Positions 12,056 through 24,480 of a DNA stretch of 64,000 nt are shown here, in pieces. This DNA is from a virus (lineage: Duplodnaviria > Caudoviricetes). How positions within the stretch are numbered: position 1 is the stretch's first letter; each line of letters starts with the position of its first letter. The notes beneath the pieces are model-generated. The model did no database searches. It saw only the letters and a list, made by a program, of their open reading frames with translations, and was not told where the DNA came from. Position numbers and translations under genes: made by a program. The stretch lies in IMG/VR virus record IMGVR_UViG_2974732567_000001, positions 1 to 64,000 of that record; one strand, written 5' to 3'.

Positions 12056-12092
12056 TTCAAATTAATTTATTGATTAAACTTAATATTATTTG

Positions 12093-12171
12093 TAGTAAGA
12101 GAGGGATTCGAACCCTCGATACTAGCTTTTGATATTATCTCACCGCTCTTCCATACTGAGCTATTCTTACT
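12093..12171 (-). ncRNA. tRNA-like element with a degenerate anticodon arm, abutting the tmRNA coding piece
   Basis: Minus strand AGTAAGA-ATA-GCTC-AGTATGGAA-GAGC...GAGGG-TTCGAAT-CCCTC-TCTTACT-A; no canonical 5-bp/7-nt anticodon arm. Confidence 0.65.
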
Positions 12172-12317
12172 TCCAGCTTTTTACGACATTAGCTTAGCCG
12201 TTTGGTTTATCTCACGCCGCTAAGCGTGTATAATCCATTACATAACTTGTATTGCCAGTTATCTGCTTATTGACCTATTCTACTTCACATTGTCGCAGTC
12301 AAATGCCTAGATGCCCC
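12172..12317 (-). ncRNA. ssrA: Permuted tmRNA, coding (5') piece
   Basis: Begins GGGGCAT-CTAGGCATTTGAC; resume context ATAACT-GGC; tag ORF 12256-12212 reads GNTSYVMDYTRLAA-TGA; helix GCTTAGC/GCTAAGC encloses the stop; 3' boundary approximate. Confidence 0.85.
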
Positions 12318-12473
12318 ATTTAAAGTAGTACTCTTACAAAATTTAACTTATAGTTTGAGTACTACTCCCGATCTTCCTATCGCTGTTAATGAAAAAACTC
12401 TTAAAGAGAAATCGAAAATTAGCGTGAGATTTCTATACGGGCCTCTTATTATTCTTGCTTATTCCATTTTTTG

Positions 12474-12530
12474 TGGAGCATGAGGGAGTCGAACCCTCGT
12501 CCTAACGACTGATTCATAGACCTAACAGTC
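12474..12530 (-). ncRNA. ssrA: Permuted tmRNA, acceptor (3') piece
   Basis: Minus strand ...GTCGTTAG-GAC-GAGGG-TTCGACT-CCCTC-ATGCTCC-A. It pairs with GGGGCAT to give the G3.U70 and A73 alanine identity; 5' boundary uncertain. Confidence 0.82.
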
Positions 12531-12536
12531 AATTGT

Positions 12537-12566
12537 GACTATGTAGGCGACCAAACCTACATAGTC
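12537..12566. other. 11-bp hairpin with loop CGACCAAA (plus sense)
   Basis: GACTATGTAGG-CGACCAAA-CCTACATAGTC, just upstream of the tmRNA acceptor piece. Confidence 0.55.
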
Positions 12567-12999
12567 TTTGGTCTTTTTTAAATTATTTTTTTAATGCCTT
12601 GATAACCTGTCTTGGAAGTATAGGATACCTTTCGGCTTCTATACGGCATGATGTCTAGCATCGCACTATTCCAAAAATGCCGACTTGATATCATAAGAAT
12701 GCTATTGCATAATATACTCAAAGAGTATAGAATCTGTATTTATATATTGCGCAATTTATATATACATCCTCATGATCTTAGGCACATGATCAGTGGCACG
12801 TTGTCATAATGTCCTACTCTGGCATCGGTTGTATTACTACACCTTACACTTGTTGTATGCATGTTAATTCATGCATGAGCTGCTTCTTTGGGTACTTAGC
12901 ACACAATGTCGTTACCTCCTATTAGCTACTTTCTCTAGTTAGGTTATATAGTCAATATTGCTATTGCTAAAACACTATACTTGGACTATGCGTGGAGAA

Positions 13000-13464
13000 T
13001 TAAAGGGACAACAATTGTCCATCCCATCTCCAATCATAACGGGCTTTCGGGTATTGGTTAAGCAATTTGTTTTGCTGTTCCTGATACCATTTGTCAACTT
13101 CACGAAGAAGATTGTTAGCCTCTTTGTAGAGCTCTTTACAATCCTTCAGGTAGTCTTCAATAGTGATTCCGCCGTTACGCAGTTTGTCATCTTTTTCAGA
13201 GAACTTCTTCAAGTAATTGAGTTTGACCTCTTTTTCCTTGTCAGTCTTTTTCATACTCAAATAAGTTGCAAGACGAGTATACTCACTCTTCAAAGTTACG
13301 TCAATATGACGTTCCGTGAGCTCCTCTTTACGCTGTTTTGCAATCTTTTCAGCAGCAGCTTTTGCAACATCTTCTGTTACAGTTGAGCCATTGTTGATTA
13401 CTTCTTCAATGTTCTCTGCTGATACTTTTGTAATATCAGCTACTTTTGCTTCTTCTTTTGTCAT
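13000..13464 (-). CDS. Coiled-coil hypothetical protein
   Basis: 154-aa ORF with the ATTATCAAAA leader. Confidence 0.8.
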   Translation of the reverse strand: MTKEEAKVADITKVSAENIEEVINNGSTVTEDVAKAAAEKIAKQRKEELTERHIDVTLKSEYTRLATYLSMKKTDKEKEVKLNYLKKFSEKDDKLRNGGITIEDYLKDCKELYKEANNLLREVDKWYQEQQNKLLNQYPKARYDWRWDGQLLSL

Positions 13465-13516
13465 TTTTTTGATAATGTTTAAAGATTGATACTATTATTA
13501 ATTAATCTCAAGTTAT

Positions 13517-13780
13517 TTACTCTTCTTTTTTTTTTGCAAGATATTCTTTACGAAGACGTCTCTTGCGTTGGTTACATGATTCACGTTTACCTGCTTTGAC
13601 AAGTTTACGATTGTCGTACGCAGTTTGGTTTCTTGTTTTATTTTCAGCGTTAATCTGAAGATAAATAATGCCTCTAGCAAAGCTCTTTGTTACTCTTTTG
13701 CGATAGGCGATAATTCTTTTCATTGCTTCCTCTTTTCCATATCTTTTATAGAGGTTAGCTTGAATTCTTTGTTGTCCCAT
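13517..13780 (-). CDS. Small basic protein
   Basis: 87-aa K/R-rich ORF with the ATTATCAAAA leader. Confidence 0.75.
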   Translation of the reverse strand: MGQQRIQANLYKRYGKEEAMKRIIAYRKRVTKSFARGIIYLQINAENKTRNQTAYDNRKLVKAGKRESCNQRKRRLRKEYLAKKKEE

Positions 13781-13990
13781 ATTTTTGATAATAATTGGTT
13801 TAATAATAAAAAAGAACTGTTCTGTATATTTGTATACCTTATTCTACAGATAACCCCTATCCTTCTTCTATCCTATATAGGATTGCCGTTGTATAGCCAT
13901 TGTACTCTAGTTCTTATGAACTTCCATTAGGGTTCTGGTATATTTACAGTTCTTTTGGGTTGATTGGAATCCACCATACTAACAATTTAA

Positions 13991-14143
13991 TTAGTAATAT
14001 ATAACAGCGGGCAGAGGCTCTGGCGGAACCTCTTGCTTGTTATTCGTTGCCATTCTGAGTTTACACTCAAGATCACATTCACTACAGTTGATAATATTAT
14101 CTCGTGTAGGACATTCGTTAGAAATCGAATTTGAAGTTTTCAT
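13991..14143 (-). CDS. Small Cys-rich protein
   Basis: MKTSNSISNECPTRDNIINCSECDLECKLR... Confidence 0.5.
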   Translation of the reverse strand: MKTSNSISNECPTRDNIINCSECDLECKLRMATNNKQEVPPEPLPAVIYY

Positions 14144-14525
14144 GATCGTCTCGATCAAATAAATGTTTAACAATCATAGGTTTACATATTCTTGCAAATT
14201 CTTTTGCTGTATCTCTGTCTTTGAGTTCCAAGGAAGTACCGGCAGTAGCATAAGCATAGCCGGGCTCAAGGTGAGAACCAACACAGAGCAAGCCCGAAGG
14301 TTTTCGATTATCTGTATAGCTCCAGCCCCATATGAAATATCTTACTTCTTCTGGATCTGTTATTCTAGGTTTCCAGCCTTTATTCAAAGCTTTTGCAATG
14401 GTTTCTAACTTGATGAAGTTCCTAGTTTCATCTGTTAATTTGTAGCTTTTATAATTAGCTACAGGACGAAGACCTAGCAATTTGCATGCATCTTCATACG
14501 GTTTTTCTTTACTTAATTCAATCAT
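14118..14525 (-). CDS. Small early protein carrying a remote DGR variable repeat (VR2)
   Basis: 135 aa; internal SGLLCVGSHLEPGYAYATAGT matches the VR1 peptide SGLLCVGSHLGPGHADAHVGT. Confidence 0.85.
   Translation of the reverse strand: MIELSKEKPYEDACKLLGLRPVANYKSYKLTDETRNFIKLETIAKALNKGWKPRITDPEEVRYFIWGWSYTDNRKPSGLLCVGSHLEPGYAYATAGTSLELKDRDTAKEFARICKPMIVKHLFDRDDHENFKFDF
14235..14298 (-). repeat. DGR variable repeat VR2
   Basis: 64-nt ungapped match to TR 60569-60632 with 17 mismatches, 15 of them at TR adenines. Confidence 0.85.
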
Positions 14526-14620
14526 GCCTTTTTACGATTATAAGGTTCCATTTTCTTATGCTTAGGACGTTTCTTGTATTCCGTCTTAGTTTTTACTTCT
14601 TTCTCCTTATTCTTTCCCAT
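14522..14620 (-). CDS. Small basic peptide (32 aa)
   Basis: MGKNKEKEVKTKTEYKKRPKHKKMEPYNRKKA fills the gap and has an ATGA overlap. Confidence 0.55.
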   Translation of the reverse strand: MGKNKEKEVKTKTEYKKRPKHKKMEPYNRKKA

Positions 14621-14622
14621 AA

Positions 14623-15093
14623 TTAAAAGAGTTTTAATATACCGTTGATTTCTTTCAAATAATATGGAATATTTGAAAGGTGTTTAGTCTCAAGAACTTT
14701 TTTGCAACTAGGCTGTAGTCTTCCAGCAGATATTAGATATTTAATCATATCTGTATTTTGTTTGCGAATATCTTCATCATTGAGGAATCTTTTTACAAAC
14801 TCTACTTTGAATAAACTTTCATTGCTAAAGTTTACTGGATTACCTACTTTTGTGATGATGTTATCACAGAATATTGTTGTAAGTTCTTCAAGATTTGGCT
14901 CCTTAGATGTTATTGTTTCTGCCTTCGATACTAATATCTTAGCTACATCAACATCTTCGAAATCAACAATTTTTAGATTATCTGACTCTATTTTTATGTG
15001 TTGCGCTACAGTATTAACAATATTACTGATAGCTGCACTTTTACGGACGTTACTTCCATAATCACCTTCAAATAAAATTACAATTGCCTTCAT
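14623..15093 (-). CDS. Hypothetical protein
   Basis: 156-aa ORF. Confidence 0.75.
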   Translation of the reverse strand: MKAIVILFEGDYGSNVRKSAAISNIVNTVAQHIKIESDNLKIVDFEDVDVAKILVSKAETITSKEPNLEELTTIFCDNIITKVGNPVNFSNESLFKVEFVKRFLNDEDIRKQNTDMIKYLISAGRLQPSCKKVLETKHLSNIPYYLKEINGILKLF

Positions 15094-15095
15094 AA

Positions 15096-15353
15096 TTATT
15101 GATTAATTATTTTTATTTCTATTTCATACTCATCTAATTCATTCTTAATATCATCAGTAGACATATTTGAATTAAGATTCAAGTATGGACATAAATGAAT
15201 TTCTTCACTTGGTTTACTTCTAGCTAATCTTTTAGCTTCACTAAAAGGTATACCTAGTATTTTATTTAATGCTAAAATGTTAGCATACAAATGTCCAGTA
15301 TGCAATATTATACTGGTAATTTGCCTTTTGGATTCCGATTTTTTTGTTTTCAT
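15096..15353 (-). CDS. Hypothetical protein
   Basis: 85-aa ORF. Confidence 0.7.
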   Translation of the reverse strand: MKTKKSESKRQITSIILHTGHLYANILALNKILGIPFSEAKRLARSKPSEEIHLCPYLNLNSNMSTDDIKNELDEYEIEIKIINQ

Positions 15354-15836
15354 TACATAAGCTTAAGTTTTAATTGTTAGTAAAATTGACGACGTCTGTA
15401 TACAGCACTATATACAGAATAATTTACCGCAGTGCTACGGGTTCGCGACTAATACTATAAAACAATAGCGCTCTATTGTACATCTGTTATTAAAGAAATC
15501 ACCTTCACACATATTACTATGTTAATTTAAACCCTCATATGTTTTAGGATTACTCCAGAGTACATACAGAAATAGCTGTCAAACTAAATCTTAGAACTCA
15601 CCTGATTTTAACGTCCGCACGATCATAGATATGTTCCTACACCTTGGGCTCAATTGAATTATGTAGGCCTAATTCTTTTGACAAGACATATCTATTTACG
15701 CCCCACAGGCTTGTCATCTTCTGAAGACTAGTCTATTCTCACGAACTGACTAGTTATTAAGTCGAAATTTTTAAACCATTTCTATTATGCAAAATGCTTC
15801 AAAAAACTGTAATAAATTGTTGTTAATTATTACTCT

Positions 15837-16295
15837 CTAACGCCTTAGAGAATCACGAGGATTCTTCACAGAATCCATTGGGGTAATTATATCGCGTTGA
15901 ATAACTGCGCCTTTTAATACATCTTTAAAATGCTCTTTGTTTGATTCATATATATAAACAATGTCGCTGTTCGACAATGATGTACCATGAGTCATAAGTA
16001 TATCAATCAAAACAGCTTCAGGCATTGCTAAAAATATACTATCAATGCGCATTCCCTCTTTTACGTCTTCTCTAAATTTGAGAATTTCTTGTACCGTTGG
16101 TACATGTTCAACTGCTTTTGCAGTATCAATGCAAACTGATTCGTCTTCCGACGTAACAATCTTAGCAATAGGCTCATGACACAGAAACACTATTACTCCA
16201 GTAGCGATTGCTAATGCAATGACTACTAATATCGTCCAAAAGCATCCATTAGACGATTTTTTTACTACAGGATATTGATTATCTTCCATACTCAA
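15837..16295 (-). CDS. Single-TM membrane protein (ends at TAG)
   Basis: Hydrophobic segment FWTILVVIALAIATGVIVFLC. Confidence 0.75.
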   Translation of the reverse strand: MSMEDNQYPVVKKSSNGCFWTILVVIALAIATGVIVFLCHEPIAKIVTSEDESVCIDTAKAVEHVPTVQEILKFREDVKEGMRIDSIFLAMPEAVLIDILMTHGTSLSNSDIVYIYESNKEHFKDVLKGAVIQRDIITPMDSVKNPRDSLRR

Positions 16296-16477
16296 TCCTC
16301 CAGTTCATCTAGTAGTTCAGATACTACGGACGGAGTCTCGATGATATCGAACTTCTCACCGCATATTGATACTAAACTTCCGTTACTATTTCCACAGCAG
16401 TAATCTAATGATACCGATGTGAATGTTAACTCTTCTCCGTCCACTGTATGGACTGTAGCAGATCTTTTTTTTTCCAT
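16292..16477 (-). CDS. Hypothetical protein
   Basis: 61-aa ORF with the ATTATCAAAA leader. Confidence 0.7.
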   Translation of the reverse strand: MEKKRSATVHTVDGEELTFTSVSLDYCCGNSNGSLVSICGEKFDIIETPSVVSELLDELED

Positions 16478-16503
16478 TTTGATAATGTTTTTAAAATTAA
16501 TAA

Positions 16504-16800
16504 TTATTTAATAGTATCACCTACAAAGTATACATTCATATATAAATAATCTGCAATATATGCTTTGTATTCATCTCCAGTAACAGGATTTACTAAACGT
16601 ATTACATATGTATCTTCATCTTCTTGATATTTATCAGATACTACATAATGTTTAAACCTCATTTGCAAATCCACAAAACCATATGGATCTTTAGGCTCCC
16701 AGTCTTTTAGCATATGTACTATAACAATAATTGTTATTGACAATACTAATAACTTGCTTATTCCATTTAGAATATTACTACTTTTAATTCTAACTGTCAT
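16504..16800 (-). CDS. Membrane-anchored hypothetical protein
   Basis: TM segment LLVLSITIIVIV; likely start MTVRIK just after the upstream peptide stop. Confidence 0.7.
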   Translation of the reverse strand: MTVRIKSSNILNGISKLLVLSITIIVIVHMLKDWEPKDPYGFVDLQMRFKHYVVSDKYQEDEDTYVIRLVNPVTGDEYKAYIADYLYMNVYFVGDTIK

Positions 16801-16801
16801 A

Positions 16802-16903
16802 TTACTTGTTGATTTCCTTCCATAATTCAATTCCTTCATGTATTATTAGGAAAACAACAGCAATTGCTCCTATAAATAGAAGTAAATTGAAAAATGTTGT
16901 CAT
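16802..16903 (-). CDS. Small membrane peptide (33 aa)
   Basis: MTTFFNLLLFIGAIAVVFLIIHEGIELWKEINK. Confidence 0.5.
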   Translation of the reverse strand: MTTFFNLLLFIGAIAVVFLIIHEGIELWKEINK

Positions 16904-17853
16904 TAATATTTAATTTGTTAATACTGTTAAATAATTTAAATACATTAGCTTCACATGCAAACTAGGAAGGTTTTGTTTTTAACATGTTACTAGACTCTAT
17001 CACCACGATGAGGTTGTATTTATTGATAGAGAAGACTACTACAATACCTTATTAGCACGGATTTTACATGTAGTAGTCGGAGGTTACGTGAGAGGTATTA
17101 TATTATTATAATTTAATCAAGAATAAAGTAAGCGCATTATATTCGCCCTCATAATTTGCAGTTATGCGCAGTAATAACTATGCTATTCTCTTACTTTAAA
17201 ATGATACTTATTGTTCAGTTAGTATCAGACTGTCAAGCACCATGTTAACCCTACTTATGGTTAAGAGTATTTCTCCCTACTTGCTTAGGATTAGTTGCTC
17301 TAAAGGGTTGCACATCACAGTGAACCTAACTGTGACCCCTTACCACGTGGATTATTAACTATTAGAATATCAATAATTTATTGTGCATATAAACTAAAGA
17401 TAAATAATAATTAATTACTTTTGACTCTGCATTTTCAATCGACTTGTCACGATCTTTAGGTAGCATTAAAAGTAATAATACATGTAGAATTACACTATCT
17501 TCACAGACCGTGTAATTGGAGACAATATTAATTTAAAAATAATATTATGAAAGATCTCTCTCTAGAGATGCATTTTACACCTAAAACTTAACAGTTAGTT
17601 TCAGTATAGAGTCCATTGCTAACACTAATACTCTATTCTTTAGCTAAGAAACTGGTGCCCTCAATGTCTTGGGAAGTTATTGAGTTTTTTGATGTGTAAC
17701 AGATTTTCACTTCGGTGGTCTATGTTACCTAACCACGCTAGCACTTACATTGATTTTCACAAACGGCTAGTGTTCTAACTTAATTTACATATTAGTGATT
17801 TTAAAAAAGGGCAGCCATAAAGACTGCCCATAAAACCAACCTCACGAAACGAA

Positions 17854-24064: not shown

Positions 24065-24167
24065 GGGAGAGTGGCGGAATGGTATACGGCAGTAGATTGA
24101 CGGAAGCGCCCTAAAGTCGTCGTTAACAAAGCTCTTGGGTTTGAGAGTTCGAATCTCTCCTCTCCCG
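24065..24167 (+). tRNA. Atypical 103-nt tRNA-like RNA with an expanded central arm; identity unresolved
   Basis: Acceptor GGGAGAG/CTCTCCC-G, D loop GAATGGTATA, T arm GAGAG-TTCGAAT-CTCTC; no canonical anticodon stem. Confidence 0.6.
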
Positions 24168-24175
24168 CTTAATAT

Positions 24176-24250
24176 TGCCCTATGGTGTAATGGTTAGCAC
24201 AGGAGGCTCTAACCCTCTTAGTCTGCGTTCGAGTCGTAGTAGGGCTACCA
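24176..24250 (+). tRNA. Amber suppressor tRNA(CUA) with a Gln-type body
   Basis: Full cloverleaf, anticodon arm GGAGG-CTCTAAC-CCTCT (CTA at 24209-11), unpaired U1, encoded CCA. Confidence 0.93.
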
Positions 24251-24391
24251 ATAAAATAGTGAAGTATGGCGCGCATACAACGTAAACACCTAAGTCACTT
24301 ATTGCGTAATTAACAATAAACACAGCTCATGATGGTCCTAATCGTAAGTAGGCAGGTTAGGCGGTTCCTGGTTTTAGTAAAACCGCTGTAC

Positions 24392-24464
24392 TGTGGGATG
24401 GAGCAGTTGGTAGCTCGTTAGGCTCATAACCTAAAGGTCGTTGGTTCAAATCCAACTCCCGCAA
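24392..24464 (+). tRNA. tRNA-Met(CAU) on an initiator-like scaffold
   Basis: TGTGGGA..GAGCAGTTGGTAGCTC-G-TTAGG-CTCATAA-CCTAA-AGGTC-GTTGG-TTCAAAT-CCAAC-TCCCGCA-A. Confidence 0.9.
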
Positions 24465-24480
24465 CTTAAGAAGAAATAAT

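Follow-up and report, generated by a model that had tools for sequence, protein, structure and literature searches.

The window, a stretch of 64,000 nucleotides of a gut crAss-like phage genome, carries a circularly permuted tmRNA (ssrA) gene on its minus strand, which is the strand of the early genes; the gene sits in the early arm. Read along that strand, the 3' module of the tmRNA comes first and ends at 12474. A spacer of 156 nt and the 5' module follow, the latter running with a 14-codon tag frame and a pseudoknot from 12317 to 12172. The features of the locus, all on the minus strand, are the following:

12537..12566, hairpin of 11 bp, GACTATGTAGG / CCTACATAGTC, immediately preceding the conserved acceptor piece
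12474..12533, conserved core of the acceptor piece, with conservation beginning at ATTGAC (from sequence reading, ARAGORN and Rfam)
12533-12528, 3' strand of P2c, ATTGAC, in the acceptor piece
12520-12516, 3' strand of P2b, TCTAT, in the acceptor piece
12509-12502, 3' strand of P2a, GTCGTTAG, in the acceptor piece, pairing with CTGCGAC
12498-12482, T-arm GAGGG-TTCGACT-CCCTC, with a T-psi-C type loop, adjoining the acceptor 3' strand
12481-12475, acceptor 3' strand ATGCTCC, with the discriminator A at 12474
12318..12473, intervening segment of 156 nt, whose sequence is not conserved among relatives
12172..12317, coding piece (from sequence reading, ARAGORN, Rfam, alignment, pairing counts and a two-strand fold)
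12317-12311, acceptor 5' strand GGGGCAT, followed by a D-loop analogue
12298-12292, 12283-12279 and 12274-12269, 5' strands of P2a, P2b and P2c within the coding piece
Following P2c in the coding piece, small hairpin that contains the resume codon
12212..12256, tag reading frame GGC ... TGA, with the resume codon GGC at 12256 and TGA at 12214-12212, encoding (A)GNTSYVMDYTRLAA
12228-12213, H5 hairpin, which spans the stop codon
12175..12201, PK2-like H-type pseudoknot downstream of the tag, with stem 1 ACGGC/GTCGT and stem 2 AGCT/AGCT
12092..12171, tRNA-shaped element abutting the coding piece (ARAGORN tRNA-Leu(UAA); Rfam tRNA, 31.5 bits; poor anticodon stem)

The original prediction of a permuted tmRNA on the minus strand holds base for base in all of its coordinates. 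Strands GGGGCAT and ATGCTCC form an acceptor stem of 7 bp with G3.U70 and A73, and this stem and the predicted P2a pairing are both present in the sequence. An unconstrained two-strand fold (-58.6 kcal/mol) recovers the acceptor stem, P2a-c, the T-arm, H5 and stem 1 of the pseudoknot. CCA is not encoded at the acceptor end of the window gene, where CAA follows the discriminator A. The hairpin upstream of the acceptor piece occurs only in a subset of relatives, with unrelated sequence at that place elsewhere. In the alignments of the relatives that bear it both arms change together (e.g. GGGTATATAGC / GCTATATACCC), and it may be an element that protects the 5' end or a leftover of a pseudoknot. 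Further structured RNAs lie upstream on the same strand at 12774-17415: RAGATH-20 (12774-12875), RAGATH-9 (13810-13967), a Hatchet ribozyme (15600-15728) and RAGATH-7 (17202-17415), each above its own Rfam gathering threshold. These RNAs also flank the tmRNA in cr56_1, cr115_1 and cr6_1, and the early arm has the look of a transcript that is processed into several RNAs.

Both kinds of search proposed with the prediction, ARAGORN and Infernal-type models, return the gene. ARAGORN calls a tmRNA* (its permuted form) at 12121-12567 on the minus strand, with a tag identical to the one read from the sequence. In a permissive search of 901 nt, the Rfam model RF04321 (tmRNA_permuted) aligns end to end with 12533-12212 at 40.3 bits (E 1.8e-6). 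This score falls short of the gathering score of 47 bits, and for this reason an Rfam 15 scan of the whole window at gathering thresholds missed the gene and gave no tmRNA match. Relatives score 41.3-70.6 bits with the same model, and five of them exceed 47 (49.6-70.6). The shortfall is a matter of divergence from the alpha, beta and cyano seed sequences and not of a missing structural feature. The one-piece model RF00023 aligns with the 3' module only (23.6 bits), and the colinear one-piece order is not found at the locus. The alpha, beta and cyano permuted models RF01849-51, merged as RF04321, have no match among those listed, which omit two weaker clan-overlapping matches. In relatives where a nuclease gene in the spacer or an intron splits the gene, ARAGORN and Rfam both miss it.

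BLAST against phage records places the homologues in Crassvirales, family Suoliviridae. An exact 29-mer of the 3' module recurs at 54 IMG/VR loci, and a coding-piece pattern retrieves at least 115 further stretches. We compared the 126 related phage loci in which we could place both halves. Every one of them has the 3' module upstream of the 5' module, and a search for the standard order, in which the 3' module would come second, returned 0 of 126. Recurrence of the arrangement in more than 100 independent contigs excludes a misassembly, and chance is ruled out by its maintenance, with compensatory changes, at the 126 loci. G3.U70 and A73 are invariant across these loci, and A73 is always followed by C and then never by CA, i.e. 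CCA is not encoded in any of them. The acceptor stem occurs in five versions and the T-arm in thirteen, with both strands changing in concert; the search that yielded the 126 loci required pairing of these two helices, and their full pairing is partly a result of construction. The covarying versions nonetheless stand at a fixed distance from independently conserved flanks. Spacers measure 16-166 nt, or approximately 600 nt where they hold an endonuclease ORF on the opposite strand.

Compensatory changes affect four of the five T-arm pairs. Pairing within the other helices was counted in 85 distinct sequences. Standard pairs make up 93% in P2a (compensatory change in 3 of 7 pairs), 97% in P2b (4 of 5), 95% in stem 1 of the pseudoknot (3 of 5) and 88% in stem 2 (3 of 4), while P2c, with 99% standard pairs, is invariant and displays no compensatory change. 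Controls with shifted partners gave 0-48% pairing over P2a, P2b, P2c and both pseudoknot stems, and 6-47% for the pseudoknot. Pairing was scored per locus in H5 and at the final two acceptor pairs, as column counts there are upset by alignment gaps and by a one-base register shift that separates TAA-type from TGA-type tags in the alignment. One further pairing, of the invariant internal loop TGTTAGG with the conserved tail CTAATG or with ATAAC upstream of the resume codon, was rejected after inspection by eye revealed no covariation in divergent members.

Not all relatives retain every element. In four of the IMG/VR loci (L021, L044, L045 and L051) the pseudoknot tail after the tag is replaced by unrelated sequence (…CTAGGGGAGTA…), so the pseudoknot is not universal. 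Two others (L107 and L123) combine a 16-nt spacer with a non-canonical T-arm, CGCGG-GGCAGTG-CCGCG, and the acceptor pair GGGGATG/CATCTCC, and may be degenerate or divergent copies. In copies of the cr56_1 type the T-loop, TATCGTAT, is unusual in having 8 nt and sits on a GGGGC/GCCCC stem. Judging by such odd T-loops (TATCGTAT, GGCAGTG) and by the absence of the pseudoknot tail in some relatives, not every copy need be active.

The tag frame is kept in 125 of the 126 loci, as 22 peptide variants of 13-14 residues with the consensus [GD][NK]..[YF][VI][TMS][DN]Y[TS].[LIV].A. All 22 variants finish with an aliphatic residue, a small residue and Ala. Several of the tags exist in two or more DNA versions, and the stop codon is TGA in 76 loci and TAA in 49. 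According to ARAGORN and the comparison of the 126 loci, the tag begins with a resume codon starting with G and has a hydrophobic end that finishes in Ala. The 3' strand of a 4-bp hairpin contains the resume codon; the hairpin covaries between GCCA/TGGC and GTCA/TGAC, which changes the residue from Gly to Asp. Pseudoknot 1 matters in the tmRNA of E. coli. Between P2 and the resume codon of the phage gene we found no pseudoknot backed by covariation, and only about 12 nt are available there.

To trace the descent of the gene we scanned one genome per species, in 185,579 species, with a 23-mer pattern of 18 fixed bases taken from the phage 5' module. At least 120 stretches match, and 77 of 80 titles among the matches listed name Bacteroidota. 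The 5' signature GGGG-N5-TGGTTTTGACAGCG is found almost exclusively in Bacteroidota genomes, where one-piece tmRNA genes begin. In 103 of 120 pattern-selected stretches ARAGORN reports a standard one-piece tmRNA, approximately 370-400 nt long. These 103 genes bear out the earlier description of Bacteroidota tmRNAs as one-piece and resuming on Gly; their tags nearly all end in AA, mostly LAA. The genes that we inspected begin exactly at the pattern, with GENNYALAA and GNNNFALAA among the tags. The phage 3' module has a stretch of 25 nt identical to Bacteroidaceae genes, the bulged-U architecture of P2a is common to the phage gene and the Bacteroidota one-piece genes, and a 3' end that reads A-C and then not CA is present in 99 of 103 Bacteroidota tmRNA genes and in 126 of 126 phage genes. 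Since the phage gene bears these signatures of one-piece Bacteroidota genes, it probably derives from a one-piece Bacteroidota ssrA, with a swap of the halves that was probably independent of the three known bacterial lineages (alpha, beta and cyano). The claim that the permutation is specific to the phage stands with respect to the host phylum: the phage gene is of Bacteroidota type, and the genes of the phylum itself are one-piece.

Two-piece tmRNAs of Alphaproteobacteria, some Betaproteobacteria and Cyanobacteria were reportedly described by Keiler in 2000 and by Sharkady and Williams in 2004. The phage gene resembles them in the order of acceptor piece, spacer and coding piece, and in the joining of the pieces by the acceptor stem and P2. 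It differs in the Bacteroidota-type features TTTGAC instead of TTCGAC, an AGCG start of P2a and the lack of an encoded CCA, and also in having no detectable pseudoknot 1, a longer tag and a host phylum with one-piece genes. Two-piece tmRNAs also occur in marine and aquatic phages, including the OM43 phage Melnitz, pelagimyophages and cyanophages, and 53 of 133 unique phage tmRNAs are two-piece by ARAGORN (PMC9004378). These genes are, like that of the window, phage-borne permuted ssrA with no phage SmpB reported (PMC9004378). By contrast, they group with the alphaproteobacterial or cyanobacterial two-piece lineages, the tmRNA of Melnitz being alphaproteobacterial though the Melnitz host is not (PMC9004378), whereas the window gene has no known cellular two-piece counterpart in its host phylum. 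With the one-piece Bacteroidota tmRNA (RF00023) the phage gene shares the 5' module, the bulged-U P2a, the T-arm, resumption on Gly, the final AC without CCA and a Tyr/Phe-containing tag ending in AA. The bacterial genes, 370-400 nt long, have tags of 8-10 residues, mostly nine as GENNYALAA, while the phage gene is permuted, half-sized at approximately 210 nt when mature, and has one pseudoknot and a tag of 13-14 residues. A tmRNA typically has four pseudoknots (PMC11915505).

Taken with these comparisons, the Suoliviridae gene is likely to represent a further independent lineage of permutation, born in phages from a one-piece Bacteroidota ssrA, pared down to the tRNA-like domain, the tag and a single pseudoknot without pseudoknot 1, and serving as a hot spot for selfish elements (group I introns in the T-loop and nuclease genes in the spacer). 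The object is real and its mechanism is ordinary for a two-piece tmRNA; what remains novel is the probably independent lineage of Bacteroidota type and the reduced architecture.

We regard the locus as quite probably a functional circularly permuted tmRNA gene of Bacteroidota descent, which a Suoliviridae crAss-like phage carries in its early-gene arm. Should the RNA work, it would have to mature into two pieces, as the acceptor 3' end cannot be free unless the spacer is cut away. Processing of the ends as in tRNA is expected for two-piece tmRNA (PMC11915505). In some relatives the spacer has only 16-25 nt, which favours a single precursor over the use of a second promoter. RNase P would cut the early transcript twice, at G12317 and at 12171, where the tRNA-like element lies. 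At least 52 of 118 relatives, and members of divergent subfamilies as well, have a tRNA-shaped element that starts 3-10 nt past the pseudoknot; this fits RNase P making the 3' end of the coding piece; the element at 12092..12171 is the likely site. The 156-nt spacer would be removed and discarded, exposing both the 3' end of the acceptor strand and the 5' end at GGGG, and the 3' end would be trimmed to A12474 or the following C before the CCA-adding enzyme of the host completes CCA. The coding piece of 146 nt and the acceptor piece of approximately 60 nt would be held together by approximately 25 intermolecular base pairs (acceptor stem and P2a-c). Host AlaRS would presumably charge the RNA via G3.U70 and A73, and host SmpB would deliver it to stalled ribosomes. 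Translation would resume at GGC 12256 and append AGNTSYVMDYTRLAA, a tag of the degradation type. The complete genome, 100,198 bp with terminal repeats, contains no SmpB gene, so that the absence of smpB first noticed in the window extends to the whole of the approximately 100-kb genome, and host SmpB would be needed. The host would also have to supply AlaRS, RNase P, a 3' trimming activity and the CCA-adding enzyme. The likely benefit would be to keep ribosomes free during breakdown of host messages or attack by host RNases in the course of infection.

The original prediction had tentatively tied the gene to stop-codon recoding, and we compared the presence of the tmRNA with in-frame stops in the portal gene of 21 Crassvirales genomes. 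The 2653-aa late protein, used as a query, has no match in Boorivirinae, which are too divergent for it, and the portal protein and sums of open frames were used instead. The tmRNA is present in 14 of the 15 Suoliviridae sampled and in none of the six other Crassvirales. Its carriers are eleven TAG-recoded Suoliviridae and three Boorivirinae with the standard code (cr10_1, cr50_1 and cr1_1), whose portal gene has no in-frame stops. For cr1_1, reading TAG as sense opens no further frame, and no tRNA(CUA) is reported. Among the 21 genomes the gene is absent in the Azobacteroides phage ProJPt-Bp1 and in six Steigviridae and Intestiviridae; a scan of the other Crassvirales with RF00023 gave only weak matches of 11-18 bits, for the most part to short pieces around the T-arm. 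Because three standard-code Suoliviridae carry the gene, its presence follows the family and not the genetic code, and the link to recoding is not supported. In the window, the start of the late arm (24065-24465, plus strand) holds a tRNA(CUA) amber suppressor at 24176-24250 (labelled 'Pyl' by ARAGORN), a tRNA-Met at 24392-24465 and an oversized tRNA match of 103 nt at 24065-24167.

This distribution weighs against the proposal that the phage tmRNA serves to rescue ribosomes that stall at UAG, or deals with the products of host genes that end in UAG, during the switch to TAG=Gln. In favour of the proposal, nearly all long plus-strand frames of the late arm contain 1-29 in-frame TAGs and the early minus-strand arm has almost none, a tRNA(CUA) is encoded at 24176, all 80 close relatives by TerL are TAG-recoded, and unassigned UAG codons trigger tmRNA rescue in RF1-less E. 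coli (PMC6207430). Yet the same permuted tmRNA in three standard-code Boorivirinae speaks against both a service to the UAG code switch and the co-occurrence with TAG recoding that was to be tested across Crassvirales. We also discarded the argument that a tag which never stops at TAG supports recoding: Bacteroidota tags likewise never do (0 of 103), which makes the absence of such a stop uninformative. Overall, a role as a helper of recoding seems decidedly improbable.

Hardly less improbable is that the RNA acts as a decoy or re-director, competing with host tmRNA for SmpB and ribosomes and so blunting trans-translation, or substituting a longer tag that gives the product a different fate. 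Such a role would suit the phage tag, which has 13-14 residues and the core DYT-x-[LI]-x-A against 8-10 residues, mostly GENNYALAA, in sampled Bacteroidota tags, and the lack of a phage SmpB, which obliges the phage and host RNAs to share the host protein. There is also a precedent in the tmRNA of phage DS6A, which has no CDS and inhibits host tmRNA, as cited in the tmRNA database paper (PMC11915505). But the tag frame, the resume context and the aliphatic-small-Ala end are conserved as in working tmRNAs, which argues for productive tagging and not for mere blocking. The same conservation bears on the idea of a non-functional relic, or a mimic of an attachment site, copied from host ssrA. Although 3' fragments of ssrA are frequent in temperate elements (PMC9004378), an att fragment would need neither the 5' half nor the tag, and both halves, the tag frame and the pseudoknot are kept across subfamilies with compensatory changes. 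We consider this origin extremely improbable.

The suggestion that the gene might be unreported holds only in part. GenBank/RefSeq records of cr52_1 (NC_055888), cr114_1, cr125_1, cr115_1 and cr10_1 (MT774382) contain a 'tmRNA, SsrA' feature, and in cr52_1, cr114_1 and cr125_1 its coordinates equal those of the ARAGORN tmRNA* call. These annotated sisters have a gene homologous to that of the window, with the permuted order, a shared neighbourhood and near-identical tags; their records give the label without mention of permutation. In cr56_1, cr6_1, cr4_1 and cr1_1 the gene is interrupted by a nuclease ORF or an intron and for that reason goes unannotated. Full-text literature searches found no paper that discusses tmRNA in Crassvirales. 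The 2025 tmRNA database paper covers 79 phage sequences and three gene forms, and crAss-like phages are unmentioned in it (PMC11915505).

The consequences for annotation are plain: the gene lies below the Rfam cut-off in the window, and relatives split by a spacer nuclease or an intron escape both detectors. In the human gut, crAss-like phages rank with the most abundant viruses. A ribosome-rescue RNA that occurs throughout a family of them and depends on SmpB, AlaRS and tRNA-processing enzymes of the host suggests that stalled ribosomes are managed by these phages while they infect. To the biology of tmRNA, the gene contributes a two-piece form of Bacteroidota descent that is minimal by nature, and it indicates that genes can become permuted in lineages other than the three classical bacterial ones. 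The null result on recoding removes an attractive but unsupported story.

Selfish elements are found inside the tmRNA genes of several relatives. A group I intron (RF00028) splits the T-loop of the permuted tmRNA in cr6_1 (NC_055894; L064:412-671, 96.7 bits), cr4_1 (L382:11686-11975, 75.4 bits) and cr1_1 (L385:17686-17930, 63.0 bits). The insertion point is after base 2 of the T-loop in cr6_1 and after base 7 in cr4_1 and cr1_1. An annotated endonuclease ORF lies past the ribozyme core in cr6_1, on the opposite strand, and seven IMG/VR loci share an intron of the cr6_1 type. A form that is both permuted and interrupted by an intron is not listed in the tmRNA database paper (PMC11915505). In cr56_1 (L002:3063-3644), cr113_1 and approximately ten IMG/VR loci, the spacer of approximately 600 nt holds the endonuclease ORF on the opposite strand, and the 3' end of this ORF (cr56_1 type) overlaps the acceptor module. 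The spacers of the Boorivirinae cr50_1 and cr10_1 (L363 and L366) hold a T-arm-like sequence, AGAGG-TTCGACT-CCTCT, as if a mini tRNA-like element stood between the pieces. In Uncouvirinae (L060:2417-2608, L061:2270-2461 and L062:2226-2411), a small gene annotated as 'ribosomal protein-like protein' shares the strand of the tmRNA and lies approximately 500 nt downstream of it.
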